Source of the DNA: Paraspadella gotoi
Lineage: Eukaryota; Animalia; Chaetognatha
NCBI GenBank assembly: GCA_051294375.1
Contig: CM119269.1
Coordinates: 19,038,418-19,102,417 of the forward strand
Length of the DNA: 64,000 bases
Direction of reading: 5' to 3'
A program made the translations under genes and the position numbers. The stretch's first letter is position 1. Each line of letters opens with the position of its first letter. The notes below the pieces were generated by a model. It was not told the origin of the DNA. It did not search any database and saw only the letters and a program-made list of their open reading frames with translations. Of this stretch, positions 13,626 to 60,361 are shown piece by piece.

Positions 13626-16600
13626 ATGCCCATCACCAAGATGTCCGTTTCTTCCTGGGACTACGTCATTTTCGCGGCTTGTCTCGCCGTCTCGGCCGGG
13701 ATCGGCGTCTATTACAGGTCGGTCTCATCGACTGTCGTCTGCAGTCCGCTCGAATTGTCCAGCTCAATTTCCTCACGACTGAGTAGTTTTTAATTTCTCA
13801 TTTTTAATTCTGTCAAACCTTGGGAATCCATGCCTTTCGTGTAGCCAATCTTTGTTCCGTCGTCCGCGTACCACTTCATTTCGTCCAACATTGTCTCCAA
13901 ATTTTTTAAAGTTGTCCCCGTATTCATCTCAGCGTCAACTTCGTCATCTACCTCGTCACCTTCAGCCGACACGAGATTGATATTTATGCGACGACGTTCG
14001 CTCGGAGGAAGGAAAAAAAAAAGAGACTCGAATATTCTCGATACTTCGACGCAGTCGCGGGTCACGTGACCGAGCTATAAATTCCTTTTCTTCATGAATT
14101 AAAAGACATTTTCTTTTTTTTGGGGGGGGAGTGGGGGGGGGTGGAGGGCACCGCGGCAGTTTCGTTGGGTGAGTGCATGTTTAAACAAATTAAATCAGCT
14201 TCGACAAAATTTTGCGTAAATCGGGTGTCGGGCCCCTGTCTCCCTCGACCCGTCGGTGAGCCTGGTCGTTGAGCGATGGGTCAAAATAGTGGAGGGCTGG
14301 AGGGCAAAGTGGAGGGCGCTGGAGCATCTTGGGTCTTCGTAGGTGAGGAATGAAAAAAGGACAAAAGAGAGTTAGGAAAAATTAAATTTGCATGTCGCGG
14401 CTTTCGTTCCGTTGCAACTGAATTATCAACTCTGTTGATTATCTTATGTTTTGAAGTATCAGTATTATTTATTTACCGACTGGACTACAAAACTACTCGA
14501 TATTACAGATATTAGCCAGTATTCACTAATAGTAAATCTTGGGGGCTGAAAAAGAAAACTCGCCATCTGTCCGCAAAACACTTCCTTCAACCAAAAAAAA
14601 AAACAAAAAACAAAAAACATAAAGAATTGGACTGAAAATTGCCGGGTAACGCGGTGGCCGGAAAAAACGACGTTTCTCACCATTTGTCTCGCGATATTCA
14701 TTTGCGGCTGTTTTCCAGCTAATGATTTTGCCTGCCTCTCTCGCCTCGCCTGATTTCGCCTGCCTCTCTGTCTCTTTTCTCCGCCCTAGCATTTTTCTCT
14801 CACACGGCGTCCTAATTGCGGGATGACAGAAAATCCCTTACCCACGCACTATTCACGCCAGAAGATATTCACCATCCATTAATAATCATTCAGCGATGCA
14901 TCGTATATTTCTTAGATAGGTTTTTAAATTTTTTTTTATATTTATTCTGTTTATTTTTTTTTTTTTTTTGAAAATGGCGCAACCAATATAAAACCAATCA
15001 ATTCATTGATTATAATTTAGATGAGTTAAAGTAATATCACTACTGAAGACGACCAGTAATTATTGATAAGTGTTAATGACAGAACCGTTCAATATAAGCA
15101 GTCCCTGAGCTTCGATCAGGCTGTAACACCGAGTTACAGGCGGGTTAAGCGCCCCGTCCCTCTTAACTGCCAGACGACCACCGGGCTAGAACCCCGGACC
15201 TTTGGGTTGGGAGGCGAATGACTTGCCTCCGGCACCAATGGCCGCTGATGAACGGTTGGTGGGTTTTAGTCCACCATACATCCCCCCCTCCCGTAGGAAG
15301 ATGTCTGTTGCGTCTCTTCAGTGAATTGTTGTTGTTGTGGAAAGGCGTCACCAAGTTGAGGCATGTCGCCTGATGTGTTGTTGGGCGGAAAGTGCATCGC
15401 CAGGTTGAGGCATGTCGCCTGAAAGTGTTGTTGTTGCTGTTGTGTTCGGAAGTCGGGCTCACCAATGAAGAGACAGTGATATTTGTTATGTGTTAGTGAT
15501 AGAACCGTTCAATATAAAGCAGTCCCTGAGCTTCGGATCAGGCTGTAACACCGAGTTACAGGCGGGTTAAGCGCCCCGTCCCTCTTAACTGCCAGACGAC
15601 CACCGGGCTAGAACCCCGACCTTTGGGTTGGGAGGCGAATGACTTGCCTCCCGGCACCAATGGCCGCTGATGAACGGTTGGTGGGTTTTAGTCCACCATA
15701 CTACCCTATTTTGCCTCTGGCTTTACTTTATCGTTGAGCTACTTTGCTTCTGCCTTTCATTTCAATTCAAATCTCCTTTCCCCATATCCCGACTTCATTA
15801 TTCCGCCGTTTTGATATTTTTATCATCTTATAATTTTGTCATTGCAGATTTGCGGGCGGGCGGCAATCAACGACGGAGGAATTCCTGATGGCCAACCGGC
15901 AGATGTCGTTAGTTCCGGTTTCGATGTCGCTCTTGGCCACTTTCATCTCGGCCATCACGTTGTTGGGAACGCCCACCGAGATATTCGTCAATGGACGCAG
16001 GTGAATATAAGAATATGGAATTAATAAGAATATACAATTAATGATAAGTTACATTAAGACTAATGGGTTAATATGTTTTAAAATGAACGGAGAAAGTAAA
16101 CTAATTTTACAAAAATCATTTACTAGGAGATATGTGTATCGATAAAACGGTTTTTATTTTTTATGAATCAGTACGTTATACTCGCCATATCTAACGTTGT
16201 AATGATCCCCATCGCTGCCTATCTTTACATCCCCGTCTTCTACGACTAAGACTAACCTCAGCCTACGAATACTTGGAACGACGTTTCAACAAAGGTAAAG
16301 AAATTCTAAAAAGCGATCGCATCGTCAGAAAGTTGGATTTATCGTTTTCCTTGCTCATTTATCAGTCAAATTATTGCGTAATTATAAAAAAATAATTAAA
16401 AGAAAAATTTCAATTTGCATCTTGCAGTGTTACATTCCATTGGTTTAAAACTTAACTTACAATGTAAATATATCTTTACATAGAATTAGAAGAAAATATA
16501 ATTTTCTATCGTGTTTTATAATTTTTGTAGTTCAAACAACCGATCGTTTTCAACAGCACTGAATTCAAAATTTTATAGATGTAACACATGCAATAAATAT

Positions 16601-19600
16601 TCAATCTTTTGCAAAAGCGGATTTCGTGGATAAATATTAGTTAAAAACAATACCAGAGCTTTACGTCGTAGGAAAATAGTAATGTATGTATAATATACAT
16701 ATACATTGTATATGTTAATATCGTTTTTGTTATTAATAAAAAATAGGAATATAAACATTGCGCGCCTTTTTACCGATAAAGAGGGAAAGTGCTAAAAAGT
16801 TTAACATCAACTATTCTACATTTTAAATTCAATGAACCAAAAATAACAAATAATCCTTGGATAAAAACAAATTTTTTTCGACCTTCCAAAACCCTCGAGC
16901 CACCCGCACCGCGGCGACTCTGATATACTCGGCCGAGATGACCATCTACATGTCCATCGTTCTCTACGCCCCCTGTCTCGCCGTCAGCGCCGTCACTGGC
17001 ATCAACGTCTGGCTCCTCATCATCGTCGCCGGCGCCATTTGCGTCTTCTACACTTCGCTTGGCGGGCTGAAGGTGAGGGATTGAAGATGGGCAATGAATT
17101 TCAAGTATGTCATCCTTCAGATCCTTCTTCCCCGGGGGCGGTGCTAGGGGCGGCCCCTCGGGGTGGTTCCGCGGGGCGGCCCCGAAGTCTGAGCGGGACT
17201 TCAGGGTGACGGAATTCTTTTTTCACACTTATTTTCCCTCCTCCCTCACCCTTCCCTTCCCTCGCGACAGGCGGTCATCTGGACCGACACGTTCCAGGTG
17301 ACCATCATGTACGCCGGCCTGATTCTGGCCCTCATCTTGGGTTCCTCTGCGGTCGACGGTGGCCTGAGCGGCGCCTGGCGCCTGGCGGCGGAGCGGGGCA
17401 GGATTGAGTTCGACAATTTGGACCCGAGCCCCTTCGAGCGTCACACCATCTGGGGTCTCGGCATCGGAGGCACTGTCGTCTGGCTGGGAATTTACTCTGT
17501 CAATCAGGCCGCGGNNNNNNNNNNNNNNNNNNNNNNNNNNNNNNNNNNNNNNNNNNNNNNNNNNNNNNNNNNNNNNNNNNNNNNNNNNNNNNNNNNNNNN
17601 NNNNNNNNNNNNNNNNNNNNNNNNNNNNNNNNNNNNNNNNNNNNNNNNNNNNNNNNNNNNNNNNNNNNNNNNNNNNNNNNNNNNNNNNNNNNNNNNNNNN
17701 NNNNNNNNNNNNNNNNNNNNNNNNNNNNNNNNNNNNNNNNNNNNNNNNNNNNNNNNNNNNNNNNNNNNNNNNNNNNNNNNNNNNNNNNNNNNNNNNNNNN
17801 NNNNNNNNNNNNNNNNNNNNNNNNNNNNNNNNNNNNNNNNNNNNNNNNNNNNNNNNNNNNNACATTCTCTTAAAAGCCCATCATTAGCCCTTCTCCTTTC
17901 CTCTATCAAGGTTCAGCGTTGCCTGGCCTGCCCGACCCTCCGCCAGGCCCAAATCGCCATGTGGATCAACGCCCCTGGCCTTGCTCTCTTCATCCTCCTC
18001 ACGTCGACGCTGGGCCTGCTCATCTTCGCCCGATACGNNNNNNNNNNNNNNNNNNNNNNNNNNNNNNNNNNNNNNNNNNNNNNNNNNNNNNNNNNNNNNN
18101 NNNNNNNNNNNNNNNNTTACCATCATAACGGTCCCATATCATTGAAGGATGAACTCGGTCTCTTCGGAGGCGTGAGTTCGAATCTCACCGCTGCCACCAC
18201 ATTGAAGGATAAACTCATGGATTTCAAAACCAGATTTATTCTGAGAATAATAAAGTGACGGTGAGACACACGCAGGAGTCTAGATTAATTCTACTGAAAG
18301 TCTGAAACTAAGGAAAGCTAGGTCTATTTATATCTAGAGAAGAGGATCAGAGGCAAGGGTTATTTTGACAGTTCCATTGATTCTGCAAGCTGATTGGTCG
18401 ATGCCGGTTAAATCTCGACCGATCACGATTCAGTGATTCCGATTCTGCGGCGATCGCCCGAATCCTCCGATCCGATTTCACTTCAAGTGAGGCCGAGTCT
18501 CCTCCACTTAAGAACCCCTCTCGCCAAACTAATGCTGGTCCTCCAAATATATTGAAAAAAAAAAAGCCAGACTTTGGCTAATCGATTAAAATCGTTAACT
18601 CGATCCCTCCCATCCTTCGAGGACGTCATCCGCCCCTACGTCCTTCCCTCAATCGACGACGCCACAGCCACTCGCGTCTCCAAGGCGCTCATCGTCGTCT
18701 TCGGCGTCGTTTGCGTCGCCCTCACGTGGGTGGCGTCGCGTTTGGGCGGAATCCTCGTCGCCTCCCTCACCTTCAACAGCGCCTTGGGCGGACCCATCCT
18801 CGGGGTGTTCACGCTCGGCCTCTTCGTGCCCTTCGCCAACGCCGCGGGGGCGATGGCAGGTCGGTAGAGGTAACGGAAGATTGTCTGTCCGATCGATAAT
18901 TCGATGGTTTTGTTCGTTGCTTGCTATTTTCAATGTGATTGGTACGATGTTGAGGATTTGATTGGGTTTAATCCTGATACAATCATTTTTTTTTGTTGGA
19001 TTCTCAGATGCCATTTGCTATTTTTTTATTTAAAAAATCGGTTTAAGACATAACTTTATTTATAAAATCCTCCTTCGTTCATTTATCCATTTTTTTTTGT
19101 TTTTCAAGTCTTTTTTCATCAGGCCTGGCGACGTCTTTGGGCGTCTCTCTGTGGATCGCGCTCGGATCTATGACGAATCCTCCCCCGCGATCGACCCTTT
19201 GTCAATCGACGACAAATTGCAGCGCCTTCAACGCAACCATCAACTTCAACGCCTCCGCGGTGCCATCGATGCGGTGCCATCAGGTCCTGTTGGAACCGGA
19301 GGCGGAAGAGTACGAGGGACTGTGGCTCTACCGGATCTCGTACATCTGGTTAGATCGGAGAGANNNNNNNNNNNNNNNNNNNNNNNNNNNNNNNNNNNNN
19401 NNNNNNNNNNNNNNNNNNNNNNNNNNNNNNNNNNNNNNNNNNNNNNNNNNNNNNNNNNNNNNNNNNNNNNNNNNNNNNNNNNNNNNNNNNNNNNNNNNNN
19501 NNNNNNNNNNNNNNNNNNNNNNNNNNNNNNNNNNNNNNNNNNNNNNNNACATAATTTCGACAAATTCGCCAACCACAGGTACAGCACCATCTCCGTTCTC

Positions 19601-19774
19601 GTCGTCCTCATTGTCGGCATCATCGTCACTCTTGTTTCCGGCCGGCGTCGATGGGCGTCGCCCGGCGCGCATCTCGTTTCTCCCGGCATCGCCCGATTCG
19701 TAGCAACCAAGGAGGAAATAAAAGTAGATGTAGACAAACAAGAAAAGACAGCGACGGAGAATTCTGCTTTTTGA
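13626..19774 (+). CDS. Sodium:solute symporter of the SLC5A5/SLC5A6/SLC5A8/SLC5A12 (NIS/SMVT/SMCT) clade, multi-exon
   Basis: Manually assembled exons: 13626-13717 (MPITKMSVSSWDYVIFAACLAVSAGIGVYY), 15848-16000 (FAGGRQSTTEEFLMANRQMSLVPVSMSLLATFISAITLLGTPTEIFVNG), 16172-16293 (..IPVFY..LTSAYEYLERRFNK), 16900-17072 (..YMSIVLYAPCLA..FYTSLGGLK), 17271-17513 (AVIWTDTFQ..DPSPFERHTIW..YSVNQAA), 17911-into N gap (VQRCLACPTLRQAQ..), 18622-18859 (DVIRP..GPILGVFTLGLFVPFANAAGA), 19123-19348 (..LYRISYIW), 19579-19774 (..ENSAF*). GGLKAVIWTD, SAYEYLERRF, NQAxVQR and LYRISYxW are family hallmarks. Two apparent 1-nt deletions at ~15995 and ~16244. Confidence 0.93.
15044..15700 (-). mobile_element. Complete non-autonomous LTR retrotransposon (TRIM) with a tRNA-like segment in each LTR, in intron 1 of the SLC5 gene
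   Basis: Near-identical 235-bp direct repeats at 15044-15278 and 15466-15700. 4-bp TSD ctac at 15040-43 and 15701-04. On the - strand the LTR ends ...CTCTTCA and is followed after 1 nt by TGGTGAGCCCGAC (15452-15464), a PBS matching the usual tRNA-Trp 3' end GTCGGGGTCACCA at 12/13. PPT GGGAGGGGGGGA (15281-15292) precedes the other LTR. No coding capacity. Confidence 0.92.
15174..15245 (-). ncRNA. tRNA-like (Gly-CCC-like) 72-nt segment inside the TRIM LTR, a putative Pol III promoter and not a functional tRNA
   Basis: - strand: GCGGCCA TT GGTGCCGGAGGCAAGTCA TTCGC CTCCCAA CCCAA AGGT CCGGG GTTCTAG CCCGG TGGTCGT. A 7-bp acceptor stem (1-7/66-72, two G:U), a 5-bp T stem at 49-53/61-65 with a B-box-like GGTTCTAGCCC, and a CTCCCAA anticodon-like loop. 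D and anticodon stems are degenerate. Also at 60161-60232 (+). Confidence 0.7.
17515..17861. other. Assembly gaps (N runs)
   Basis: Further N runs at 18038-18116, 19364-19548, 21138-21162, 21354-21364, 40447-40471 and 40664-41010. Confidence 1.
18158..18199 (+). tRNA. 3' half of tRNA-Leu including CCA (fragment, not a gene)
   Basis: gtctcttcggaggcgtgagttcgaatctcaccgctgcca+cca: long variable arm GTCTC-TTCG-GAGGC, T arm GTGAG-TTCGAAT-CTCAC, acceptor 3' strand CGCTGCCA, then CCA. This closely matches the 3' half of metazoan tRNA-Leu(AAG/TAG). The 5' half is absent. Confidence 0.85.
18203..18485 (-). mobile_element. LTR (283 bp) of a second LTR-retroelement family in an SLC5 intron
   Basis: Inverted termini TGAAG...CTTCA. 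On the - strand: TATAAATA (18325-18332), AATAAA (18235-18240) ~30 nt before the CA end, then 3 nt and TGGTGGCAGCGGTGAGAT, a tRNA-Leu PBS typical of Gypsy-like elements. No TSD was found. Confidence 0.65.
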
Positions 19775-20443
19775 TTTTTTGTAAAAGAAATGGATATCAA
19801 CGTGATGTTTACATTATACATATCAGTGTTGTAATGATCTTAAGTTACAACTCATATCGTTTTTACCGCAACGATTTTAATTGTTTAATAAATTGTTCTT
19901 CTTGAGACTTGATGTTACGATATTTTGTTATATATATTCCATCTCTAGTAATTACATTTTTTTAAACTAAATTCATAGAACACAAAAAAGAGAAAAAATT
20001 TTGTTTTTGGCATAGTGAACAACTTTTCCGAAAGATGTCGCTTGATTACAAACAAAGGACAATTATATTTTTTACCGTAATATCAAATAATTGGGTTTAT
20101 TGTTATAAAAATATTTTTCTTGTGTATCTACGATACGACTTACGTCGTTATTTATACTTGTATTTGTTTTTCAACATTCTGTCAACAACGTACATTGTGA
20201 ATAGGGAAGGGAAATTAGAACTGAATCCAAAATAAATCGGATTGAGAGCAAAATTAAACCTTTTCCAATTAACTCATTGACTCTAACAATGAACTCAAAC
20301 CTGTTTTCAAAATGATCTGTAGAGATTTTAAAAACAGGTTTAAAAAAAATTCAGGTTTTTGACATTTATCGAAAAAAATATTAAAAACTTAAAAATGTTT
20401 AAATCGATCTCGAGTTGAATGAAAAAGTAAGGCACCCGTCGAA

Positions 20444-21162: not shown

Positions 21163-21514
21163 CTCTCTCTCTCTCTCTCGCTCTCTCTCCGCCCCTTCTG
21201 ATTCAAGAGTCCCAACTGGTTCCAAAGCACAGAATGTTTTTCGAAAGAGAGAAACCCGATTTTGTACTCAACCCTTGAGGAAACGGACGAAAAAAAATTG
21301 AAGAAAAAAAAACCCCTAAGAACTCAGTGACGGCCACAGATGTTTAATCGCGAANNNNNNNNNNTTATGTTGAAAAACATGTATTTCTTATACATAATTC
21401 ATTATTAATCTGTAAAAAATTACAACTTCGATTTCATTCACCCTGCCGAATTTCGATTTTAAAAATATTCTTAGTAGAGGTAAACGATTAGATAGTTTCG
21501 AGACATATGATATT
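21163..21514 (+). other. Small gap-flanked redundant copies of ~20535-20720 and ~21035-21135 (assembly overlap)
   Basis: ccccttctgattcaagagtcccaactg...gaatgtttttcgaaagag repeats 20551-20610. tattaatctgtaaaaaatt..cttcgatt..caccctgccgaatttcg repeats 21070-21120. Both are bounded by N runs. Confidence 0.8.
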
Positions 21515-24500
21515 CCCCTCCCCGCCCCGTCCCGCCTCCCGCGGCCTGCTTGCCCGCGTCCCTTCCCCGCCCGCCGCCGTGCCTCCGCTGCCGCGCGCCC
21601 CCTGGTGTGGCCGCCTCGCCGGGGCTCGGGTCCCCTTGTCGCCCTCCCTCCTGCCCCGCTCCGCCGCCCGGCGCCCGGCGCCGCTCCGGCCCCGTGCCCG
21701 CCGCGGCCCCCGCTGCGGGCCCCGCCTCCGGCCGGCGTCCCTGCTTGGTCCCTGGCCCGTGTAGGTCCCGCTGCCCGCCTGTCGCGCGGCCGGGCCGGGT
21801 GCGGCCGGCCCGCTCCGTGTGCCTTCCGTCCCCCTGCCGTCCCGCTCCCCTTCGGGGCCGCCCCGCGGCCCCGCGGGCCGCCCCTCGCCCCGCCCCCGCG
21901 GCGCCGGCTCTGCCGGCTGCCCTCCTTGCCCTTCCTTGCCCCTCTATCCCTCCCTCCCCTTCCGCCCGCCCCGCGCCGTGTTACGCCGCCGCCCTGGCGC
22001 CGGCGCCGCTGCTGCGGCGCCCGCCGTTTGCTGCCCGTGCCGGCGCTGCCGGCGCGCCGGGGGCGTCGCGCCGCGCTGGCGTCGCTGGTCCTCTCGGCCG
22101 CGTCTCTCCGCGTCGCCGCGGTGCCGGGGGCTCGCGGTTTTGGCCGGTCGCCCTTTGTTTTTCTCCCGGCTTCTTTGTTCTTTTTGGTTCCTTGCCTTCC
22201 CCTGTCGCCTCGTTGCTGTTCCCCTTTTCGCCCTTTCCGTCTTTCTCGGTCCCCCGGGCGCGCCCTGTTTCTCTTCCTCTTTTTCTTCCTCCCGCTCTTC
22301 CTCTCCCTGTCTAGTCTCATTCTCCCTCCTTCCTCTTTTCCTCAGGCCCGTCCCGCTCTGGTCTTGTTTTCCCTCCTCTTTCTCCACGCCCTCCGCTTTG
22401 CCCCGACCTTGCCTCTTTCCTTCCTGTGTTCCCTCTCTCCTTGCCTTCCGTGCTGTTGCCCCCGCTCGGTTTGTTTGCCCTCCCTTCTCCCGCTCGCCCT
22501 TCTCTTCTTCTCCTTCTCTGTCCGCTCTCTTTCCCTGCGCCGTCCTTTTCCCCTGGCCTGTTCCTCCTGCCCGGTCCCCCTTGCCCCTTTTCTTTTCCTT
22601 TAGTTCTCTTCCGCCCACCTCCTTTGCCTGCTCCCTTGCCGCTCCGGCCCGCTCCCTCCCCTTCCTGCCGGCTGCGCTCGCTTTTCGCCTTTCTTTCCCT
22701 TCTGTTGACCCGTCGTTCCCCTCTTCCGTCGGCTGCGGTTCTGTCTTCGTCGGTCGCCGCCGGGGCCTGTCCCGCTCGGCCGCGCCTGGGCTCCCTTCCT
22801 TCGCTCTGGCGCCGTCTCCCGTCCTGCCTTCCTCCCCTCCGATTTCTCGCTCCCCCTCTCTCCTCGTTCCCTGCTTTCTTTGTCCCTTCGTTTCCTTTCT
22901 CCGTTCCTTTCCCCTCCTCCCCTTCGTCTTCCTGTCTCTCCCTTCCTTGTCTCATTCTTCTTCCTTCCTCTTCTTCTCTTCCCTCTGCGTCCCTTGCCGC
23001 CTCTCTCGGTGGGCGTTCCCCCCGTGCTGGCCGCGCTGCCCGTAGGCCCGCGCGCCCTCGCCCCCGGCCCTCCCGCCCTCTGCCGGTTGGCCCTCCGGCC
23101 TTCCTCCGTCGTTGCTTGCCGCCCGCCCCCGCCCCTCTGCTGCCCTTCTCCGCTGCTCCTCTCCCCGGCGGCCTCACTGCCGTCGGCATCTTGGGGGCCC
23201 GGCGCTTTGCCTTGCCCTGCCCAGGCCGCCGCCCGTCGCCCCCGCTCCGTCGCCCGCGCGCCCCTCGGGCGTCGGTGGCCTCCCCCCCCCTGCCGTTTCT
23301 CCGCGGCCCCTTGGTGCCGGCGGCCTCCTTCGCCTCCCCCTCCCCCCGGTCCGGCGGTTCTCGCCCCGGTGTCGTCTGGCCGTTGCCGCGGGGCCGCGCT
23401 TGGGGCGCTTACCCGCCGCCTGTTCCCTCGGTGTTCCCGCCTTGCTCCGCCGCTCCGGGCCGCTATCTCTTGCCCGGTTCTCTCCTCCTCCCTCTCCCTG
23501 TCTCTTCCTTGGTGCGCCCGCATCCGCCCCCACCCCGCCCCCCTTTCCGGCGCCCCTGCCATTCCCCTGGCGCCTGCCCTTTTCCGCCCCCCCACCCTCC
23601 CGCGCCTGCCTCCCGTTGGTCCGCCACTTTCCCCCCCCCCCTTCCCATGCCGCGCCGCCCGCCCTCTTCCCCTCCGGCGGGGGCTGTCTTGGTGGCCTCC
23701 CCCCCGTTCTCGCCGGCCCTTGGTGCCGTTGCCGGCCCGTCCTTCGCCTCCCCCCGCCCCCGGATCCGGGGTTCTCCCCGGTGAAGTCGTCTGGCCCGTT
23801 CCGCGGGCCGGGCGTGCTTCCCCGCGCCTGTTCCCTCGGTGTTCCCGCCTGCCTCCGCCGCTCCGGGCCTGCTTCTCTTGTGCGTTCTGTCTTCCCTCTT
23901 CTCCTCTGTTTCCCTTGTCTCTGTCCGTCGTAGGCGTCTTCTGTCTTCCCTCACTCTCTCCTTCTCCTCCCTGCCTTGGCTTGGTTTTCTCTTGCGTTGG
24001 CCCTTTCTCTTCCCGCTGCGCCTCCCTTCCGCCTCGCCTTCCTCCCCTTTTTTTCTATCTTGTCCAGCCCCCATCTATCCGCCCTCTCCGCTGCCTTCGC
24101 CTGCCTGCTTCTTCCTGGCTGGTGCCTCTCTTCTGGCGTGCCTCGTGGCGTGGTCAGGGCTTTTCTGGTCCTCCCGCCCGATTGCGGGCCGCAGTGTGCC
24201 GCGCCCTGTCTCGGGCGGCGCCCGCGCCCGAGCGGCCGGCGCCTCCGGCGGCGGCGCGCGCCGGCCGGCCCCCTCCTTCGCTGGCCCCGCTGCCCCTGCC
24301 TCCTGCGCGCCCCTGGTGCGCTCACGCCCCGTCGTTTCTTCCGGCCCGCGTTCCCCGGCCTGTTCCGTCCCTCTTCTTTCTGTTTTGTTTTTGATAACAT
24401 TTTTTTTTTGGTTGCCGGCCTGTTTTTGCGGCCGCTGGCGCGTTTTCTGTTATCGTTCCGCCCGGCCCGCTTTCCCTCGTTCGTGCCTCTGCTCCTCTTC

Positions 24501-27500
24501 TGGTTCCCCTCTCGCGTCGTTTGTCGTCGCCGTCGGTCCCTCTCTGCTCTTCCCTCCGCTCTCCGCGTTGCTCCTCCGTTGCCCCGGCCCGCCGCCGCCG
24601 CCCTGCCTTTCCTTTTTCCTCCCTCTCTTTTGTCCTTTTTTTCCTTCCTCATCTCCCGCCGACCCCCGCTGCTCCCGCGCCCCTCGGCCCTTTGGACCTT
24701 CCCGCCCTCCCCTCTTTTGCCTTCGCTCCCCGCCCCCGGCTCCCCGCCGGGTCGCGGGCGCCCGGGGCCCGACCCCCCGCTTTCCGCCCCTTTTGTCGCC
24801 GCTGCTTTCCTTTGTTTCCCCCTGCCCTCCCCCCTTGCCCAGCGGTGCCCTCCCCGCCCCCCCTTCCCCCCCACCGCCCCTGTCTTTCCTTCCTGCCCGC
24901 CCCGGACCTTTCTAGCTCGGTTCCCCGTGCCCGCGCGCCTGCGTCGCAGTCTCGCGCCCTTCCGCGTCTCTTTTTTTTTTCCTTCCTCCGCGCGCCCGTC
25001 GTCGCCTCCTCTCCCTCTCGTTCGGCTGCCCGGTGCCGCGGGTCGCTGCCGCCGGTTGCCGCTGCCTGCCTCCGGGGCTCCGCCTTTTCCCACTTTGGCG
25101 CCCCTGTTGGCCGCCCTGCGTGGCCCGCGGCCGCCGGCCCGCTTGGCTCCCCGCCCGCCTGGCTTCCCCGGTTTGCCCGCCTTCCCTCGCGCCCTTCCCT
25201 CCTCCGTCGTGCCGGCCCTTTGCGCTGGCTTCGCGCGGCCTGCGCCGCCCGTCGCTGCGCCCGCCTGTCCTCGCCGCCCGCTCCCGGCCGCGCCGGCGCG
25301 CCCCGCCGCGCCCTGCCGTCGTTCCCGGCCGCCCGGCCCTCTTGGTGCTGGGCCCTTGTTGCCGCGTGGGTGTCGCCGCCCGTTTGGCTGGCGCGGCTTC
25401 CCCTCTGTCCTCCGCCCTCCCCTTTTTCCCCTCCCCGTTTTCGTTTGCCTCCTTTCGCCCTCGCGCGCTCCTTTCCCTTGCCCCGCTTCTGTCTGCCTGG
25501 GCGCTTTTCTTCCCCTTTCTTTTGTTTCCTCTCGCGCCCCGCCTTTTTCCCGCCGCGCTTTTCTCTTTCCTGCTTTCTTGCCGTTTCGCCTCGTCCTTTT
25601 TTTTGCCGCCTCCTCCTTTCGCTTTTTTTCTTTTGCCCTCGCCTCCTTTTTTCCTCTTCTCTCTGCCTCCTTTTTTTCCATTTTCTTCCTTGTGTTTTTT
25701 TTTGGTTGTTTTTTTTTCCCCGCCTCCGTTTGCCCTTTTTTTCCGTCCTTTTCCGCACCTCCGCGTCCTCCTCCTCTCTCCATCCCGTTCTCGCCTCTGT
25801 TTCCGCCTCCGGTTCCCTCGGTCCTCCCCCGTCCGGCCCGTTTTCCCCTTCTCCCTCCCCTTTTCACCGCCGCTCCTGGCTATCGCCCTTCCCTTCTCTT
25901 CCTCGCCTCGCCCCCTGCCTCCTCCTGCCCTCCCTCCCTCTGCCGCGCCCGGCCGGCTCCTTGGGCGCGGCCCTTTCCCTCCCCCCTGCTGCCACCTTCC
26001 CCTTGTGTCCCTCCTCCCTCTTCCGCCCTCCTTCCTCGGCTCCCGCCCTGCCCTTTTTCCTTGCCGTCTTTTCCCTTCCTGTTCATGCTCTCTCCTGTGC
26101 ACCCTTCTCTTTCCGCCCTCTGTCTCCACTCTCCGCTCCGCTTCCTCCTGGTCCGTCTTCTCCTCTTCGGTCCCCTAACTCCCTCCCTGGATCTCACCCT
26201 TCCCCCACTTCTCCTTTCCACCCGTTTCTGTCCCGCCCTCTTCCTCTTCGCCTCTTCTGCCTTTTTTCTTCCTTGCTTCTCCCCGGCCTGCTGTGTGCTC
26301 TCGCTTCGCCACCCTCGGGCCGCCTTGTCGTCTCCCTTTGTGTTGCGCGCCCTCTCTCTCTCTCTCTCTCCTCTTCGCCTCCTCCGCTGGCGTCGTCCTT
26401 TCTCCTCTCTCCCTGTGCCCCGTCTTCCTTCTTTCCCCCGTCCTCCCCCGCCCCGGGCGTCTCCTTCTCCTTCTCGCCCCGGCCTCTCCTCCTGCTCTTT
26501 CCTCTCCCTGCCCCCCGTCCTTTGTTGTCCCCTTTCCCCAGCCCTCTCGTTTCTTTTTTCCCTCCCTCGCCTTTACTCTGGTTGTCATACCATTTCCTCC
26601 TCCCGGTTCCTTGCGTCTCTCTTGCCCACACTCCCGCCTTTTTCCCCGGCGCCCTCCTCCCCACCGGTCCTTTTTTGTTCTGTCTCCTTCCCCGTTCCTT
26701 CGCCGGGTCCCCTTCCCTTCGGTTTTTCGGGTTCTTTATTCACCGTATCGCTGGTTCCCCCCCTCCGTTCCTCGTCTTTTCCTTTTTTCCCCGCCCTCGC
26801 CCTCCCTTTCGTTTCTTTTGGCCCCGTTCTCCTTTTCTTGCCCTACCCTTTCCCGCGTTCCCGCCGCCCGCCCGTCCCCGCCCCCTGTCGCTTCCTTCCC
26901 TGGGTTTTTTTTTTTTTTCCCTCGCGCTTCTCCCTTCGGGCCTCCCTGCGGCCCCCTGTTGCTCCGCGAGGCGCCCTGCTTGCGCCGCGCTGCGCCGTTT
27001 GGGGCTGCGCCGCGCGGGTCCAGCGCGGCTGCGCGCGGGTCCGCCCCCGCCGGTCCGTCGCCGGTCCCCCTGGTTCTGCGGGTTCCGCGCCCGCTTTTCG
27101 TCCGCCCGCTTCGGTCGCGGCCGCGGCCCGTTGCCCGCCTCTTTCTCTCTCCTCTCTCTCTCTCTTTTTCTTCTCCTCTTTTGTTTTCTCTCTTTTTGTT
27201 TCCTCTCTTCCTCCCATCTTTCTCACGGTTCCTCCGTTCCTGCTTCTCTGTTTTTTCCTTACTTTCCTCGCGTTTTCTGCCTTTTTCTCCCTTGCGCCGC
27301 GTCTCCTGACTCTCATTTCTTCCCCCTTCCCTGCACCCCGCCGCCCTCTTCCCCGTTCCGTCCTTCGCCCCTCCGCGCCGCCCTGCCATGCCCCTCTCCT
27401 TATTGCCCTGGCTCTCCCGCCTGCCCCCGCCCATTTTCTTCGTCCGCGGCTGCCGTCCTTTTCGTTGGTGTTCTCGTCGCTGTCGTGGTTGATGTCAGTC

Positions 27501-28345
27501 GGTCGTCGTACAGTCGCGTTCCTCCTCGTCCGTCGTTTACTCGTCTTTCGACCGCGGCTCCTTTCTCCCGGGTCGCTCTGCCCTTGGCCGGGGCCCGCCC
27601 ATTTGGCTGGCCCTCGCGCGCGCGCGCGCGCCGCGCGAGCGCGCGCGCGCGCGCGCCCGCGCGCGCGCGCGCGCGCGCGCGCGCGCGACCGCGCGCGGCG
27701 CCACGCCCGTGCCGCTTCCGTTTCTGGTGCTGTCCCGCTTGCCCGTGCCTCGCTTCCCCTCCCTCCTGGTTTCCCTCTTCGGCTTTACCACCCCGCACGC
27801 GAGCCGTGGGCGCCAGCGCAGCGCGCGCGCGACGCGCGCGGCCGAGGCGCGCGCGAGCGCGCGCGCGCGCGCGCGCGCGCGCGCGCGCGCGCGCGCGCGC
27901 GTGCTGCTCGCCGCTCCTTTCTTGGTCTTTTCGCCCCTTCCTTCGCCGCTGCCCTGGCGCTGCCGCGCCCGTCGGCCCCCGTCCCGTGCCGGGCTTACGT
28001 TCGTTCCCCTGTTTGTTGCCCCTCCTTTCCCGATTTGCCCTGTTTCTTTGCTTGCTCCTACCACCGACTCCCGTCTCTCCTCCCTCTCCCCTCTTCCCCT
28101 CCTCCCTTTTTTCCCTCCCGTCGCTCTCCTCTTACTCTTTGACCTTTCTCGGCTTTTCTTTTTTTCTCTCTCTCTCCCTCTCTCTTTTTTACTTTCCTCT
28201 CTCATCCACCTCTCTTTTCTCTCTCCTCTCTCTCCTCTCTCTCTCTCCCCCTCTCGTTCTTCTCCCCCTCTCTCTCCCTCTCCGCGCTTGGTACTGTCCC
28301 CGGCCCGACCCCCGGCGTCTTTCCCTCTTCTCTTTTGCCTTTCTC
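21515..28345 (-). other. Assembly artefact: reverse-complement pass over ~17540->10530 with A miscalled as C
   Basis: Reverse-complementing 17410-17514, 16170-16290, 11740-11985 and 10530-10600 and replacing A with C reproduces 21538-21640, 22703-22830, 26900-27140 and 28282-28345. (AG)n tracts appear as (CG)n. A is nearly absent. Confidence 0.95.
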
Positions 28346-28385
28346 CTCTCTCTCCCCACCCCGGCGGCGGACGGCCGCGCGCGCT
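28346..28385 (+). other. PacBio SMRTbell hairpin adapter (A->C corrupted) at the fold-back point
   Basis: Observed ctctctctccccaccccggcggcggacggccgcgcgcgct. The adapter ATCTCTCTCAACAACAACAACGGAGGAGGAGGAAAAGAGAGAGAT with A->C gives ctctctctc(c)n-ggcggcggcgg-cccc-gcgcgcgct. It lies exactly between the reverse and forward copies, both ending at ~10530. Confidence 0.9.
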
Positions 28386-31300
28386 GCGCCGCCCCCGCGC
28401 CTCGTACCCGCCGGCCTTGGGCTTACGTGTGCCCCTCCCCGCGGTCGTTTCGTGTGCGCGCGCGGGGCGCGCGCGCGGGGCGCGCGCCGCGAGCGCGCGC
28501 GCGCGCCCGCGCGCGTGACGCGCGCGCCGCGCCCTTCTGTCGAGCGTGCGCCGCGCGCGCCCCGCCCGCCTCTCCCTTCCTCTCCTCTTCGCTCGCCTTT
28601 CTGGTCCCCGTGCTGCTGGTTCACGCCATTTGCTCTTGCTTCGCTCCTTTTTCTCTGTGTGCTTCTTCCCTCCCATCCCCCACTTTCCCTTTCCCTTCTT
28701 GTAATCCCCTTCCCGCCCTCCTCGGCCGTCCCGTGGCACTTTTGTCCCGCTGTCTCGTCCGCTCCCGTCACTTCGTCGCGCACGGCCGTTTCGCCCGCCC
28801 CCGCCATTTGCTCTGGCGCGCCCTCTCTCGGTCTCTCTCTCGTCTCTCTCTCCTCTCTCTCTCTCCTCTCTCTTCTCTCTCCTCTCTGCTCTCTCTCTCT
28901 CCTCTCTCTTCTCTTTCTCCCTCGCTCTTCTTTTTTTCCCGCTCCGATGTAACCCCGGCTTTCGGTCGCGCGTTGCCTGTCACCTGCCCTCACCCCGCCC
29001 CTCGCCTCTTCCCTTTCTTTTTCTCTCTCCTCTCTCTCGTCTCTCTCTCTAATCCCTCTCTCTATTCTCTTTCTCTCTCTCCTCTCTCTCTCTCTGCTCT
29101 CCTCTCTCTCTCTCTCGTCCCTCCCTTTTTCTTCTTTTCCCGTCCCCTTCCTTCGCGACGTGCGCCCGTACGCCTTGCTCCCGCCGCCGGACCCGCCGAC
29201 CGCTTCTGCCCGACGCAGCCGCCGGCCGCCGCCACGCACCCCCCGCCGCGCCGCGCCCCCCGCCGCCTGGCCGCTCGCCCTCGCACCGTTTCGTTTTTTT
29301 TTTTTTCCGTCGTCGGCCCTTTCCCCTGCTCGTTTTCCTTTTGTTCCTTTTCTTCTGCCTTCGTTGCTCCGTACGCGTTTCCCGTTTTCGCTTGGCTTTT
29401 TCCTTATCCGTTTCCTCCCTCTCTTCATGCGCCTTCTGCTCCCATTGATCCCTTCCTCCCCGCGACTGCCGCCTGCCCGCGGCCGCCGGCCCGGACGGCC
29501 CCTCGCCCGATGGCGGCAGCGCGCGACCCCCCCGCGCGCCCCGCGCAGCCATCCCCGCGCGCGCGCGCGCGCGCCGCAACACGCTGCTTGTCCCGGTTCC
29601 TCTTCCGCGCCGCGCCCTCGGGCTGCCTCCCATCTGCTCTGCCCCTCGCCGCCCCGTTTGCCCTCGACCTGCCCATTGCCGTTGGCCTTCCCCTCTCTCC
29701 TCCTCGCATTCCGCCCTTCTCTTTCTCCCTCCACGCCCTTCTCTCTCTTCTCCCTCTTTCTTCCTCGCGGCATCACCCTCTCGCGCGCCCCTCCCTTTTC
29801 TGCCCGCCGTGCGCCTTCTGCGCGTGCCCGCCCTTTTCCTTCATCGCCCCGTTTCTTTTTTTTTTTCCTTTTTTGTCTTTCTTCTTCAACTCTTTTTTCA
29901 CATTTTACTTTCCCGCCCCTGTTTCGCCCGGTGTCCCCTCCCGCCCTTTCTTTCTTTTCCTTTTCCCCTTACCCATCCGCTTCACGCGTTTTTGGGTCCC
30001 CCCATCGACCTGGACTACCCGCACCCCTCCTTCCTTGGTGGCCCCTTGCACTTCCCGGTGTTACCTTCGCCTCCCCTGGCCGCGGTGTATTCTGTCTCCT
30101 TTTTCCACACACTCTTCTTTTTTCCCTCTACTACTCCCCTGCCCTTTCTGTTCTGCCCTTTCGTCCCCCCTCTCTTCATCTCTTGCTTTACCCTCACCTC
30201 ATACTTGCTGTGCCCCTTTACCCTTCCTTGTTTCCTTTGCTCTTACCTCCGTTTTTACTTCTGCGCTGCTGTTGCTCTCCTTCTCCTTCCCTCCTGTGCT
30301 TGTGCTGCGTTTCCAGCCTTCCTCCTTGTTTCCCTCTTTTTCTTTTTCTCTTTTCTCCCGGTTTTCGCTCCTCTCTATTCTTCTCTCACCTCTCTCTCTC
30401 TCTACTACTCTTTGTTTTTTGTCTCCCCCCCCTTCGCCCCACCTCTGTCCTCGTTTTTCTCCTCGCATCTCTCCTTCCTGTTCGACCCGTCACTTCCTCC
30501 CACCATCCTCCTTCTCTACCGCGTCAGCTGCTGGCCCGCCGGGCTGGGCCAGGATCCTTTTTGGCGGGCGCCCGTTACTTTCTGCCTTTTTTTACCCCTC
30601 GGGCTCCGCCTCCCCTGTCCCTCGTCTGTTCTGCTCGGGCCCTCCTGGGGCCCGGTTTCTCCGGGGCACCTTTACTCTCCTGCACCAACTACCTTTTCCC
30701 TCCCTTGCCTGGCACCTTTCCTTTTTTCTTTCTCACTCTTTTTTCCTTCTTTTCTTTTTCCTCTTTTTTTCTCTTTTCTGTTTCCCCCCTGGGCCGTCAC
30801 TCCGTTGGGCTTGCCTTTTCTCTCCCCCTGACGCTTCCCTTTCTCAGCTCCTCGTTTCTTTTGCTTATTCTCTTCTTCCTGTGGGTGCTTCCTTTTTCCT
30901 CTTGGTCTCCATTTTTCGTTTTCTTCACGCCCATGCTTTTCCTTGTTCCACCTGTTGCCGGACTACATTTGCCCCTTTTTCCTGCTTTATTTTCTGACCC
31001 CTTCCTTCTCTTCCCCTCTTCATCTCACTTTTCTGTCTTCTTCTTCTGTTCTTATTTTTTCGCGCCGGCCTTTTCGGCCCCTTACGTCAACCGTGGCCCC
31101 CTTCTTCGGGCCACCCACCCCACCCCTTGCCTCCATGCCCCCATTGCCTTTCGCTCGCTCCTCACCTCTTCTCATGTCCCCTCACTTCCCTTCGTCAGCT
31201 CGTGCCCCACCTGACCGTTTCTTCTCCCCGTCCCTCCTTCCGCTCCCGCTCTTCGCCCTTCCGTTTTCTGCGCTTCCCTCCTGTTCCGCCTTCGCCCTTC

Positions 31301-33477
31301 ATCCCATCATCTTTCCCTTTCCTTTTTTTTTCTCTCGCGCTTTCTCCCTGCGTGCACCTCCCTTTTGGGCTGTTCACCCCGTTTGGCGGTCGCGTTGTCC
31401 CTCTTTTCCTCCAGCTCGCCGCCCGCCTTTTTCGTCACCACCCCGCGTCCACCCCCCTGGCCCACCTACCCCAGCTGTCCGTTTCTCCTGGGCCTCCGTC
31501 CTTTTTCGCGGCTTGTCTCGCCGTCTCGGGCGCGGGCTGCGCCGTCTCTTCCCGGTGCGGTTCTACCTCGACCTGTCGTCTGCACGTCCCGCATCGCCTT
31601 GGTCGCCGCCTCCCTTTCCTCCCGCCTGCGTCGTATTTTCATTTCTCACTTTTTCCTTCTGTCCCCCTGGGACCTCCCTGCCTTTCGTGTCGTCCCACTC
31701 TTTTGTTCGCGTCGTCGCGTCCACCACTTCCTTTCGTCCCACCCTTGTCTCCACTTTTTTTTCAACGTTGTCCGGCCGTCTTCCATCTCCGCCGTCACTT
31801 CGTCACTCTCCACTCGTCCCCTTCCGACCGCCCCGCGCATTGCTCTTTACGCGCCGCCGTTCGCTCGGCGGCCGGACACCCCCCGCGCTCGTCCTTTCTC
31901 GCTTCCTCTCGCCGCCGTCGCGGGTCCCGTGCCCGCGCTCTCCCTTCCTTTTCAATTCCTCCTTCCACGCACTTTTCTTTTTTTTATGGGGGGGGGCGTG
32001 GGGGGGGGGTGGCGGAGCACCGCGCGGCCGTTTTGTTGGGTGCGTGCATGTTTTACCCCCACTTCCTCCGCTTCGCCCCACCTTTGCGTACCCTCGGGTG
32101 TCGGGCCCCTGTCTCCCTACGGCAACTGATGCGGGCCTGGTCCGTTGAGCGCTGGGTTTCACCACTCGTGGAGGGCTGGCGGGCCCCGTGGCGGGCGCTG
32201 GACGCCTCTGGAGTCTTCGTCAGGTGCGGCACTGGCCACCCGGCCCACCACTGCGCAGTTTCGGCCCCACTTCCCATTTGCCTGTCGCGCTTTCGTTCCG
32301 TTGCCCCTGCCTTATCCCCTGCTGTTGCTTCTCTTCTGTTTGCCGTCTCACGTCTTCTTTCTTTCCCGCCTGGCCTCCCCCCTCCTCGCGTCTTACCGCT
32401 CTTCGCCCGTCTTCACCATCCTCGTCCCTCTTGGGAGGCTGCACAGCCACCTCGCCCTCTGTCCGCCCCCCTTCCCTTCCCCCCACCACCACCCCCCCCC
32501 TCCCGCCTTGGCCCTGCCACCATTGCGGGTCACCGGGTGGACGGCCACCCCGCCGTTTCTCCCCTTTGTTTCTCGCGCTCCTTCCTTTGCGGCTGTTTTC
32601 CCGGCTCCTGCTTTTGGCCTGACCTCTCTCGCCTCGCCTGACTTTCGCCCTGCCTGCTCTGTCCTCTTTTATCTCCGCCCTCAGCACTTTTTTCTACTCC
32701 CGGCGTACTCCTTGCGGGCTGCCAGACCACCCCTTACACCACCGCCCTTCTTCCCGCCCGCGACTCTTCACGCCCTCCCTTTCACTCCTCCTTCCGCGCT
32801 GCCTCGTCTCTTTCTTCGCTCGGTTTTTTCCCTTTTTTCTCATTTCTTCTGTTCCTTTTTTTTTTTGCCCCTGGCGCCCCCTCATCCACCCCCTCCACTT
32901 CCTTGCTTCTCACTTTCGCTGCGTTACCCGTCCTCATCCCTCCTGCCGCGCCACGTCCTTCTTGACTCCGTGTTCCATGCCACGCCCGTTCCACCTCTCA
33001 CGCCGTCGCGCTGCGCTTCGGCTCAGTGCTGTCCGCGTTCCCGGCGGTTCCGCGCCCCGTCCCTCTTCCCTGCCAGCCGCACGCCCCCGGGCTACGCACC
33101 CCCGCCCATTTGGTGGGCGGCGCCTGCCCTTGCCTCGGCCCCCTGGACAGGCTGCTGCCCGGTTGGTGGTTTTCGTCCCCACTCCTCCCCCCTCCCGTCG
33201 GCACGCTGTCTGTTAGCGTCTCTTCCGTGACATTGTTGTTGTTGGTGGCCCGTGCGTCCCCCCGTTGACAGGCCTGTCGCCTGCTGTGTTTGTGGGCGGC
33301 CGTGCATTCGCCCTGGGGGGGGGGGGGGGGGGGGGGGGGGAGGGGGGGGGGGGTGGAGGAGGGGAGGGGGGTGGGGGGGGGGGGGGGGGGGGGGGTGGGG
33401 AGGGGGGGGGGGGGTGGGGGGGGGGAGGGGGGGGGGGGGGTGGGGGGGGGCGGTGGGTGGGGGGGGCGGGGGGGGGT

Positions 33478-33510
<33 letters not shown>

Positions 33511-39419: not shown

Positions 39420-40350
39420 CTCTCTATTCTAGACTTTCTTCTCTACTGTATCTATCTTATCGGTCTTCTCCCGCCCCTTCTGATTCAAGAGTCGCCAACT
39501 GTTCCTAAAAGCACAAGAATGTTTTTCAGAAAGAGAGAAACCCGATTTGTACTGCAACCCTTGAGGAAGGACGAAAAAAATTGAAGAAAAAAAACCCCTA
39601 AGAACCTCAGTTGACGGCCACAGATGTTTAATCGCGAAACGTTTAAAAACTTTCCTGGTTCTTAAACTTCCGACGAGGTCAGTCACTCCTATTTGATTAT
39701 GAAAATAATAAAAAAAACTGTTTTAAAAATCTGCTTTCGTAATTACGAAAAAATACCGATAATCCCTTATTATAAGGCGATTATTTATTTTTAGATTTTT
39801 CTGACTAAGGCTTACAAGTCATTATTCTTTGGCAACCTCTTTTTTCTTATGAACTAAAGAGAAGTAATATATTGATATGTGTTAGTGACAGAACCGTTCA
39901 ATATAAGCAGTCCGCTGAGCTTCGGATCCAGCTGTGAACACCGAGTTACAGGCGGGTTAAGCGCACCGCGTCCCTCTAGAACTGCTAGGCGACCAACGGG
40001 CTAGAACCCGGACCTTTGGGTTGGGAGGCGAATCGAATTTTGCCTTCGGCAACCAATGGCGCGCTGATGAACGGTTAGTGGATATTTAGTCCACATAATG
40101 ACGATAATTTTTTGTTATCTAAATGATAAGACTTTATTTTAATTTAGAAAATTGTTTTTCTTTAATTTGTTGATTTCTGTCTTGAAGTTTCGGTTTAAAT
40201 TTAATGTTAGAAAAACATGTATTTCTTATACATAATTCATTATTAATCTGTAAAAAATTACAACTTCGATTTCATTCACTGCGATTTCGATTTTAAAAAT
40301 ATTCTTAGTAGAGGTAAACGATTAGATAGTTTCGAAGACAATATGATATT
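28386..40350 (+). other. Assembly artefact: forward pass over ~10530->21514 (A->C until ~36580, then indel-rich raw-read quality)
   Basis: Colinear copies: 29583ff=11742ff, 31430ff=SLC5 exon 1, 32940-33825=TRIM, 36580-37000=18150-18550, 37855-38120 and 38350-38600=last SLC5 exons. 40318-40350 (acgattagatagtttcg..atatgatatt) equals 21484-21514, so the true continuation of 21514 is ~40351. Confidence 0.95.
39855..40097 (-). mobile_element. Solo LTR of the TRIM family (noisy read copy), absent from the equivalent site at ~20920
   Basis: Same LTR sequence as 15466-15700 with indels. The flanks ggcaacctct..ttct(a)atga(a)c | atgacga.. join without an insert at 20901-20930. Confidence 0.85.
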
Positions 40351-45100: not shown

Positions 45101-46099
45101 ATCGCCCTTTCTCTCGATCGTCGCGTTATCGTCTTCGTCGTCGTCGTCGTCGGCTTCGACTTTTGGTGGATTCCGTTGTCAGCGGCGGTGGCGCTGATCG
45201 CCGGCGGGTGGCGGAGGGGTGGGGGAAGGATGAGGAGAAGGTGGAGGAGGCGAGAGGAAGGAGAAGTAGGGATGAGGAGGAAGGAAGAAAGGGGGAGGGG
45301 AAAAAAGGGATGGCGGATCAAACGCAGGTTCAACTTGATGAATGAATTTTATGAATGAATGAATTAAAAAGAAATAAGAGGGAAAGAGCTAAACTGCTGG
45401 AGAGAGAGAGAGGAGAGAGAGAGGAGAGAGAGAAGGAGAGAATGGAGAAGACGAGATGACGAGAGAGGAGAGGGAGAGAGAGAGAGAGAATTAGAAAGAG
45501 AGAGTAAAAAACGGACAAGCAATTACTACCTATTCCAGCTGCTGATGGATCTTGCTATGCAAATGCAAGTTCTCAGCGATTTGGCGGCGGCATTCACAGA
45601 ACGGGTCAGGAACCTATTTAACTGGACGACGCCGTTTCTGTCGGCGTTTGCGTTAGCGGCTTCCGTAGCGGGCGTCCTTGTCGTTTACATTGTTCCCGCC
45701 AGATGGCTGGTCCTTCTCCTTGGTTTGCACATGGTCAGTGATTTCTCATGAGAGAAACAAAATAACAAGTACATACTTTTAACAAATTGACAAAAAAATA
45801 TTACACAATAAGTCAAATGCTTACAGTGGAATATATATTTCTATTTCAGTTTTAAATGGCTCTCTTTCTCATCTTTCTCCAGGAGATTTGATATCTCTAC
45901 ACTACATACGTCTTTTTATAATTATATTATATCTTAATTCCGCCAGATGACGAAAAAATTCCGCGACCGCCATCCTCTGGAGCAGCACACCCTGTTGGAC
46001 TTTTTGGCGAGGGTCCCGTCGAACGAGGAGCGAGAGAGTCGTCGTCGTCTTCCTCCCGCGCGGCGATCGAGGTCCGCGTCGCGGCGAAGTCGGACATGA
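40480..46099 (+). CDS. MCTP: Multiple C2 and transmembrane domain-containing protein (MCTP-like), multi-exon, with indel errors and part hidden in an N gap
   Basis: Exons: possible first 40480-40585; ..PYVK ending 41024; 41235-41436 (FKVGPRTVYKSKRIDKTL.., C2A, frameshifted); 42173-42368; 42643-42935 (VTVVLREGDNLPAMDADGGSDPYVK); 43052-43270 (LRLGRQKRKSKVKPSTLHPRWFQTFEF..DDRIG); 43538-43804 (LRVLQASGLRPADFNGSSDPFVVVRLVNTRLQTHTLYK); 43907-43972; 44041-44175; 44345-44450; 45001-~45327; 45539-45733 (ERVRNLFNWTTPFLS + TM); 45947-46099 (LLDFLARVPS..*). Three C2 domains plus a PRT_C-type membrane C-terminus is the MCTP architecture. Confidence 0.9.
41440..41785. repeat. Intronic minisatellite, ~38-40 bp unit
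   Basis: The unit gatggtggagtaagggagaatgatgtagttgagatggaaat is repeated ~9 times with variants. Confidence 0.8.
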
Positions 46100-49716: not shown

Positions 49717-50093
49717 TTATAGAATTATATACCGATTAAAAAAATAGAATATTTCATTACGCAATAAAATACTAGTATGACGCAATGTTGTTTGTTTACT
49801 TAAAGACAGGGAGCCGCAGCGGACATCTAAACCAGAATTTTTGACTGAAAAATTGAAAATTGAAAAACAAAAGAGCTAAAACAATATCGATCTAAGTATA
49901 CAACTCGGATTTAGGAGTCAAAAAAGTTAGTGTTGCAATAGAAAATATTTAAATAATTCATGAAGTATTATTTTAGTTATTTATTTTCAATCGTTTTTGG
50001 GTCAGTTATTTTATATTTAAGATGAAAAAAAAAGAACGAAAATGCTGTGGGTCTATGAAGAGAGGGCGTGAAAAAAGAGCGAATTTTCGTAAG

Positions 50094-60127: not shown

Positions 60128-60361
60128 TATGGTGGACTAAAATCCACCTACCGTTCATCAGCGGCCATTGGTGCCGGAGGCAAGTCATTCACCTCCCAAC
60201 CCAAAGGTCCGGGATTCTAGCCCGCTGGTCGTCTGGCAGTTAAGAGGGACGGGGCGCTTAACCCGCCTGTAACATGGTGTTACAGCCTGATCCGAAGCTA
60301 AGGGACTGCTTATATTGAACGGTTCTGTCATTAACACATAACAATAATTACTGTCTCTTCA
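60128..60361 (+). mobile_element. Solo LTR of the TRIM family
   Basis: Reverse complement of 15466-15700 with few substitutions. Termini TATGGTGG...CTCTTCA. 4-bp TSD atat (60124-27, 60362-65). Confidence 0.92.

Follow-up and report, generated by a model that had tools for sequence, protein, structure and literature searches.

The described systems closest to the element reported here are the Helenus TRIMs of animals and the retrozymes. The tRNA-like segments of Helenus are mostly not functional tRNAs, and transcription of these elements by Pol III has been proposed but is unvalidated (PMC10886601); the same study lists a Trp-primed Gypsy element in Nasonia. Retrozymes, as described in reviews, use hammerheads and seem to be promoterless, and those of animals are without LTRs, PBS and PPT. 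For the hammerhead retrozymes of the axolotl, dimeric cleavage has been shown, and RtcB circularises the monomers in vitro. As for twister ribozymes, high-throughput tests found the catalytic bases and the pseudoknots to be sensitive, whereas flaws in P1, P2 and P4 were tolerated (McKinley 2024), and P1 has been reported to be dispensable. PMC11662667, PMC5408937, PMC7761336 and PMC6765202 served as further sources.

Here we describe an element from the chaetognath Paraspadella gotoi, found in a stretch of 64 kb (hereafter the window, meaning the whole of the DNA that was analysed), which is likely a Helenus-type TRIM with a predicted twister ribozyme in each LTR. The twister directly 3' of the tRNA-like segment is its main feature and was absent from a first-pass annotation of the same DNA. 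In the literature searched, which was mostly open-access and had Repbase and Dfam outside its scope, we found no twister-bearing LTR element, nor the combination of such an element with a tRNA-type promoter.

Results

A short LTR element in an intron of an SLC5 transporter gene

The plus strand of the window carries at 13627-19800 an SMCT-like gene for an SLC5 sodium-solute symporter, which is interrupted by assembly gaps, and the element lies antisense within the intron ahead of an exon (15848-15992) that matches human SMCT1 with an E-value of 1.5e-12. The full element measures 657 nt (15044-15700) and has the minus strand as its sense strand. It has the features by which a TRIM is recognised, being shorter than 1 kb and non-coding, with two LTRs, a PBS, a PPT and a TSD (Table 1). 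This anatomy, including the interior of 187 bp, had been proposed in the first-pass annotation and is confirmed.

Table 1. Features of the element, its copies and the adjacent host exon, by position in the window. Pairing partners are separated by a slash.
Feature	Position	Strand	Remarks
Host exon of the SLC5 (SMCT-like) transporter gene	15848..15992	+	upstream donor 13717/13718, splice phase fits
5' LTR	15466..15700	-	235 nt as assembled; ends TA...CA
3' LTR	15044..15278	-	235 nt as assembled
Interior	15279..15465	-	187 nt, non-coding
Target-site duplication, left copy	15040..15043	not applicable	CTAC
Target-site duplication, right copy	15701..15704	not applicable	CTAC
PBS	15452..15464	-	12/13 match to the tRNA-Trp PBS of Kojima Fig. 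S2 (PMC10886601)
PPT	15281..15292	-	followed by TG (15280-15279), outside the integrated LTR
Two imperfect direct repeats of ~46 nt	15339..15433	-	in the non-coding interior
tRNA-like segment, 5' LTR	15595..15667	-	Gly-CCC-like frame; A and B boxes degenerate
tRNA-like segment, 3' LTR	15174..15245	-	72 nt; 7-bp acceptor stem with G-U pairs, CU-CCC-AA loop, AGGTC variable loop, B box
Predicted twister fold, 5' LTR	15519..15592	-	P5-type order, intact, 74 nt, directly 3' of the tRNA frame
5' LTR P5	15592-15588/15523-15519	-	pairing pattern
5' LTR P2	15584-15581/15566-15564	-	bulged
5' LTR G-A	15580-15579	-	
5' LTR T1	15578-15576 with L4	-	pseudoknot
5' LTR palindromic P1 region	15575-15570	-	6 nt
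5' LTR predicted cut	between 15569 and 15568	-	U^AA
5' LTR T2	15563-15562	-	pseudoknot
5' LTR P3	15561-15543	-	8 bp
5' LTR P4	15542-15538/15529-15525	-	5 bp
5' LTR L4	15537-15530	-	8 nt, ends AAGC
Predicted twister fold, 3' LTR	15098..15170	-	predicted cut between 15147 and 15146; L4 of 7 nt vs 8 nt in other copies
Solo LTR	60128..60361	+	TSD ATAT; twister fold 60236-60309, one P4 mismatch private to the copy
Solo LTR	39855..40097	-	error-rich; TSD unreadable

Comparison of the two LTRs shows 7 mismatches and several 1-nt indels. Two bases of the 3' LTR (15050 and 15053) are missing from the contigs that span the locus in the public runs X1 and X3 and are, for this reason, probably assembly errors. 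The integrated ends read 5'-TA...CA-3'. In run X1 the LTR is left at 15278 in 106 contigs as against 15280 in 10, from which we conclude that the TG between the PPT and the 3' LTR is not integrated. The PBS is separated from the 5' LTR by one base. Priming by tRNA-Trp, which had been suggested earlier, is likely, as judged by comparison with the tRNA-Trp PBS of another species; 12 of the 13 positions agree, and the one mismatch does not appear in the list of family variants at a share of 10%. The interior also holds, at 15312-15320, an inverted 9-nt copy of the U5 end of the LTR (15466-15474); both pair in the folded RNA, where they could possibly form a packaging or priming structure.

Elsewhere in the window, near 37800-38700, the last exons of the SLC5 gene appear a second time, with errors. 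The exons at 42600-45750 (+), which have C2 domains and match PRT_C, likely belong to an MCTP-type gene, a name that we infer. Two long open frames on the minus strand, of 481 aa (46730-48175) and 514 aa (53044-54588), are alike in their C-terminal regions, and one of them has a zinc-finger-like CxxC...H...H motif; neither has a Pfam match, and the leads from Atlas were RRM-like only and scored below 0.9. An array of GACG/GAAG tetranucleotides with a structured flank occupies 49490-49720 and is possibly part of another repeat family.

A dispersed family and an assembly artefact

BLAST within the window gave five loci for the element. Three are real insertion sites, as had been thought, namely the full element and the solo LTRs at 60128-60361 and 39855-40097, and the TSD is legible at two of the three (CTAC and ATAT). 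The copies near 23.3-23.9k and 33.0-33.8k were rejected as insertions: both of their flanks are the same as those of the 15-kb locus and carry A-to-C miscalls; in one flank of an artefact copy, for example, 178 of the 193 A that could be aligned have become C. The block of about 16 kb at approximately 21400-37300, in which the plus strand is almost without A, is an assembly artefact in which the neighbouring locus is repeated in both directions with its A miscalled as C, and features called inside it are suspect.

In the public runs X1 and X3, which are from the same organism, each LTR end is represented by about 100-130 distinct junction contigs, whose flanks are AT-rich. They agree with the high copy number that had been suspected and, together with the two solo LTRs, support a mobile and dispersed family. 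Contig depth summed over the LTR is ~10^4 times the flank depth, a sum that is not a copy number; that the family has hundreds of copies is safe to say, and thousands are likely. Run X9, which we guess to be RNA, contains contigs of the element and has coverage of the host exon, though none of the intron flanks; as contigs reveal neither strand, start nor level, we do not count those of the element as expression. Run X10, from a different organism, yielded 2 records only, and an exact 20-mer of the family had no match in metagenome contigs.

A worn tRNA-like segment in each LTR

The first-pass annotation had placed a tRNA-like segment of 72 nt at 15245-15174 and had named tRNA detection programs as a check. 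Neither ARAGORN at default settings nor Rfam calls a tRNA there; the segment itself nevertheless beats shuffled controls. With the ARAGORN threshold relaxed to 80%, a tRNA-Gly(CCC) is called in three of the four LTR copies and in the same frame, and the call persists up to 86% in two of the four, a level at which a call of any kind appears in 32 of 2000 shuffles. We also scored landmarks, combining the acceptor stem, A box, anticodon loop and B box, with standard box motifs. None of 5000 shuffles reached the score of the 3' LTR, and 7 of 5000 reached that of the 5' LTR. The pattern of A and B boxes at fixed spacing is not significant window-wide when taken alone (16 of 100 shuffles).

The B box is present as GGTTC, and the A box departs from TRGCY, the Helenus consensus being TRGCY...YGG. 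Preferential conservation of the two boxes across copies, which had been put forward as a test of the tRNA reading, is shown only in part: canonical A14, which the window copies do not have, occurs in about 11% of the family depth, and changes in the B box make up 2-4% of depth among 40 of the 91 variant rows. Two common variants of the acceptor stem, which in X1 account for 14% and 39% of the depth, change G-U pairs to G-C pairs. Read from its sequence, the segment is a worn, degenerate tRNA of the kind seen in Helenus, and it likely acts as a Pol III promoter. The sense strand of the element contains no TTTT, an absence for which we estimate a chance probability of about one in three.

A predicted twister fold directly downstream

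The domain that follows the tRNA-like segment is ordered as P5, linker, P2, GA, T1', P1 region, UAA, P2, GC, P3, P4/L4 and closing P5, where P3 starts with CUGUA and ends with GUUAC and L4 ends with AAGC. Both order and sequence fit the layout of the S. mansoni twister in its P5 permutation (PMC8501958, Table 1) and the Rfam consensus, and P3 resembles the consensus of RF03160. The 5' LTR has the general acid A and the A next to it, the general base G, and the two pseudoknots. A structural descriptor, which we composed after sight of the sequence, has a single match in the window, in the 5' LTR and on the sense strand of the element, and was matched by one of 20,000 LTR shuffles. Among 40 of the 91 variant rows, 8 family variants fall in the 74-nt fold as against 10 in the 52-nt tail; with six positions excluded at which the reference copy alone deviates, the non-CpG variants of the fold are confined to the linkers, the P3 loop or its closing pair.

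Searches elsewhere gave a measure of how often such motifs occur. The bare twister motif string was found in 118 metagenome stretches from 28 of the 64 parts scanned, none of them homologous to the element by BLAST; their stems are missing, the best total for P3 and P4 being 8 bp compared with 12 in the element. In viral contigs the canonical P4-L4 motif appeared in 119 distinct contexts, 36 of which were in P5 order, 25 of these with a P2 of 3 bp, and Rfam confirmed twisters at 8 of 20 viral loci tested, three of them in P5 order with a 3-bp P2. The T1 pair of the element is swapped, and the swapped form also occurs in natural folds of viral contigs: 15 of 61 motif matches in P1/P3 order and 11 of 60 in P5 order passed the stem filter, where chance may account for some of those in P5 order. 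Candidate twister-like folds with the swapped pair were seen in the viral contigs at L355, L356, L377, L452, L480 and others.

Other observations count against the fold. The P1 helix is replaced by a self-complementary 6-mer, placed in register with P1 of Rfam, that forms at most 1-2 bp as a monomer and 6 bp with a second copy (-8.3 kcal/mol); the monomer is without the P1 stem of a twister. A scan of viral contigs for short P1 helices found no natural counterpart of this palindrome; it returned 3 of 82 candidates, two of which resemble tandem P1-type copies. P2 can pair only with a bulge or a C-A pair, and P4 is closed by A-U where 22 of 22 aligned natural examples have G-C, although 16 of these were forced by the search motif. 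On 88 nt, Rfam (RF02684/RF03160) gave no twister match even at E<=10. Our own covariance model, made from the twister 3' half of 22 natural twisters, aligned the 5' LTR in the right columns, but at 8.9 bits and an E-value of 0.5, and a chance match in the artefact region outscored it. The pseudoknotted core is not formed in minimum-energy folds. Of the four real LTR copies in the window, only the 5' LTR has the fold intact: the loop of the 3' LTR is one base short, which may be either real or an assembly error, the copy at 60k has a mismatch in P4, and that at 40k is noisy. At a T1 base that is a CpG site, G-to-A occurs in about 12-13% of family depth (X1 and X3).

Other assignments fared poorly. 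Rfam matches to sR38, RCNMV and UPD-PKc were far below gathering scores and were rejected, HDV-like and hammerhead folds, judged by eye, did not fit the downstream domain, its resemblance to 5S was faint with nil support from Rfam, and no hammerhead was found in the LTRs by Rfam scans.

On the whole of this evidence we are confident, short of certainty, that the domain is a true twister fold, and we predict that it probably still cleaves itself. The element might instead be an ordinary Helenus TRIM, with a Pol III transcript, normal strand transfer via an R region and a twister that survives as an inactive relic. Such a reading agrees with the presence of every sequence-level feature of Helenus, with the near loss of P1, with profile searches that give no significant twister score and with a fold that is flawed in three of the four window copies. 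Given that the catalytic bases and both pseudoknots of the 5' LTR are intact, that no non-CpG variants fall on them among 40 of the 91 variant rows, and that natural twisters tolerate flaws in P1 and P2, we consider a relic unlikely.

Discussion

A model for replication through a unit RNA

On balance, we favour the reading that the element is a high-copy, non-coding LTR retrozyme which replicates via a unit RNA of 422 nt and has in each LTR a tRNA segment and a predicted self-cleaving twister. First, Pol III would initiate in the 5' LTR, at its tRNA segment, and read through the element. Each LTR twister would then cut at U^AA, and the two cuts (15569/15568 and 15147/15146) would free 422 nt, made up of the interior and a single LTR and ending in a 5'-OH and a cyclic phosphate. 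Within a transcript, both ribozymes may pair with each other through the P1 6-mer and cut as a dimer, an arrangement that would spare the transcripts of solo LTRs. Once freed, the unit would be closed into a circle by a host ligase of the RtcB type. Finally, a Gypsy helper would prime at the Trp-type PBS, copy more than one round, rebuild both LTRs and integrate with a 4-bp TSD.

It is likely that the twister fold alters the replication route. Since the 422-nt RNA is without a terminal repeat, its copying needs circularisation, as has been argued likewise for plant retrozymes, and we hold the chances of the circle route to be even. Contigs cannot reveal the circle junction because ligation would restore the LTR sequence. 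That cleavage of the two LTRs is paired is suggested by the P1 region, with its 1-2 bp within a molecule and 6 bp between copies; a strict requirement for the dimer, which follows from this modelled pairing, is a tentative proposal.

An active twister could also serve as a former of 3' ends in place of a T-run terminator, cutting mainly the 3' LTR and leaving a linear RNA with an R of ~99 nt and normal strand transfer. This would make sense of the lack of TTTT on the sense strand and of an outer stem of 9-10 bp, formed by U3 and the LTR tail, which encloses tRNA and ribozyme and which, in a transcript made by Pol III, the 3' LTR alone can form. However, the 5' copy is complete too, with its whole fold, P5 included, downstream of the predicted start, and the palindromic P1 region suggests a paired, two-sided action, which makes such a role quite improbable. 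That the promoter is dead and that the two ribozymes excise the element from Pol II read-through RNA of the host, as proposed for promoterless retrozymes, would suit the degenerate tRNA segment, the dependence on read-through proposed for retrozymes and the intronic site of the window copy, but we can give it hardly any credence, as the tRNA spacing of both boxes is kept, the canonical A14 is found in some of the family, the common acceptor-stem variants change G-U to G-C, and the window copy is antisense to the host gene.

If the retrozyme reading with a 422-nt unit RNA is true, the element, being an LTR element of an animal in which every LTR combines a promoter of the tRNA type with a twister, would join TRIMp3 and the retrozymes. 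The twister would gain a role in LTR retrotransposition, and the element would offer a direct test of LTR copying from a circular template; a natural twister that depends on dimers would be a new ribozyme behaviour. In its boldest form, which we regard as speculative and rather doubtful, the proposal is that the element is an LTR retrozyme of animals which brings its own Pol III promoter and whose twister acts strictly as a dimer, the two LTR copies pairing via what is left of P1. Full-length transcripts alone would then be cut to a 422-nt circle, solo LTRs in their thousands would stay uncut, and the element together with the hammerhead-bearing Helenus of Synergus would make up a Trp-primed lineage of TRIMs with tRNA promoters that swaps ribozyme classes.

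Comparison with known systems

Helenus (TRIMp3; PMC10886601) is like the element in being shorter than 1 kb and non-coding, in having a tRNA-like segment in sense orientation in each LTR, and in its PBS, PPT and animal-type TSD of 4 bp. This match of layout to the families of Kojima 2024 upholds the comparison with Helenus drawn in the first-pass annotation. Nearest in layout are Helenus-2_SyJa and Helenus-2_SyUm from Synergus, both with the same Trp-type PBS, and LTRs that start with TA also occur in some Helenus families of wasps. Five motifs of our family have no match in Data S1 of PMC10886601, taken as a whole file. The element differs from Helenus in the twister that follows the tRNA segment; the portion of the PMC10886601 text consulted contains no twister, and the word ribozyme only in the title of a reference. 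Instead of a twister, Helenus-2_SyJa-LTR and Helenus-2_SyUm-LTR in Data S1 have, by eye, a hammerhead core behind the tRNA segment.

Judged by eye, the motif of these two families is a type III hammerhead, complete and with loops that are complementary to each other, and it goes unmentioned in that portion of the main text. A 12-mer at 15141-15152 (-), spanning the predicted cut, is common to both Ajax LTRs of Data S1, where a hairpin comes after it; as we estimate that chance would yield about as much across Data S1, this is a lead only, and may be chance or a twister relic.

The plant LTR retrozymes (PMC4918200) resemble the element in that they are non-autonomous, with a self-cleaving motif in each LTR, a PBS, a PPT, a 4-bp TSD and solo LTRs. 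For them too a Gypsy helper has been proposed, and cleavage in both LTRs yields a unit RNA that lacks an R repeat. They differ in their type III hammerhead, their Met PBS and a unit of about 600-1000 nt, whereas our element has an animal host, a Trp PBS, a predicted unit of 422 nt, putative circles and a likely internal tRNA-type promoter. Its motif is of the twister type, and the hammerhead by which LTR retrozymes are defined is lacking.

With the type-P5 twister RF02684 the LTR domain shares the order of parts, the catalytic G and A, UAA, T1, T2, the AAGC loop and a P2 of 3 bp. In contrast to RF02684, its P1 is a self-complementary 6-mer, a P3 is present as in RF03160, P2 is bulged, P4 is closed by A-U, and the whole lies below Rfam detection. 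Lastly, the twister variants of Schistosoma Perere-3 (PMC8501958) and the non-LTR retrozymes of animals (PMC7229834) are further cases in which small ribozymes process the RNA of animal retroelements, and they have in common with the element weak helices and dimeric cleavage, the latter predicted in our case. Perere-3 and the animal retrozymes are non-LTR elements without PBS and PPT, whereas the element described here is of the LTR type.
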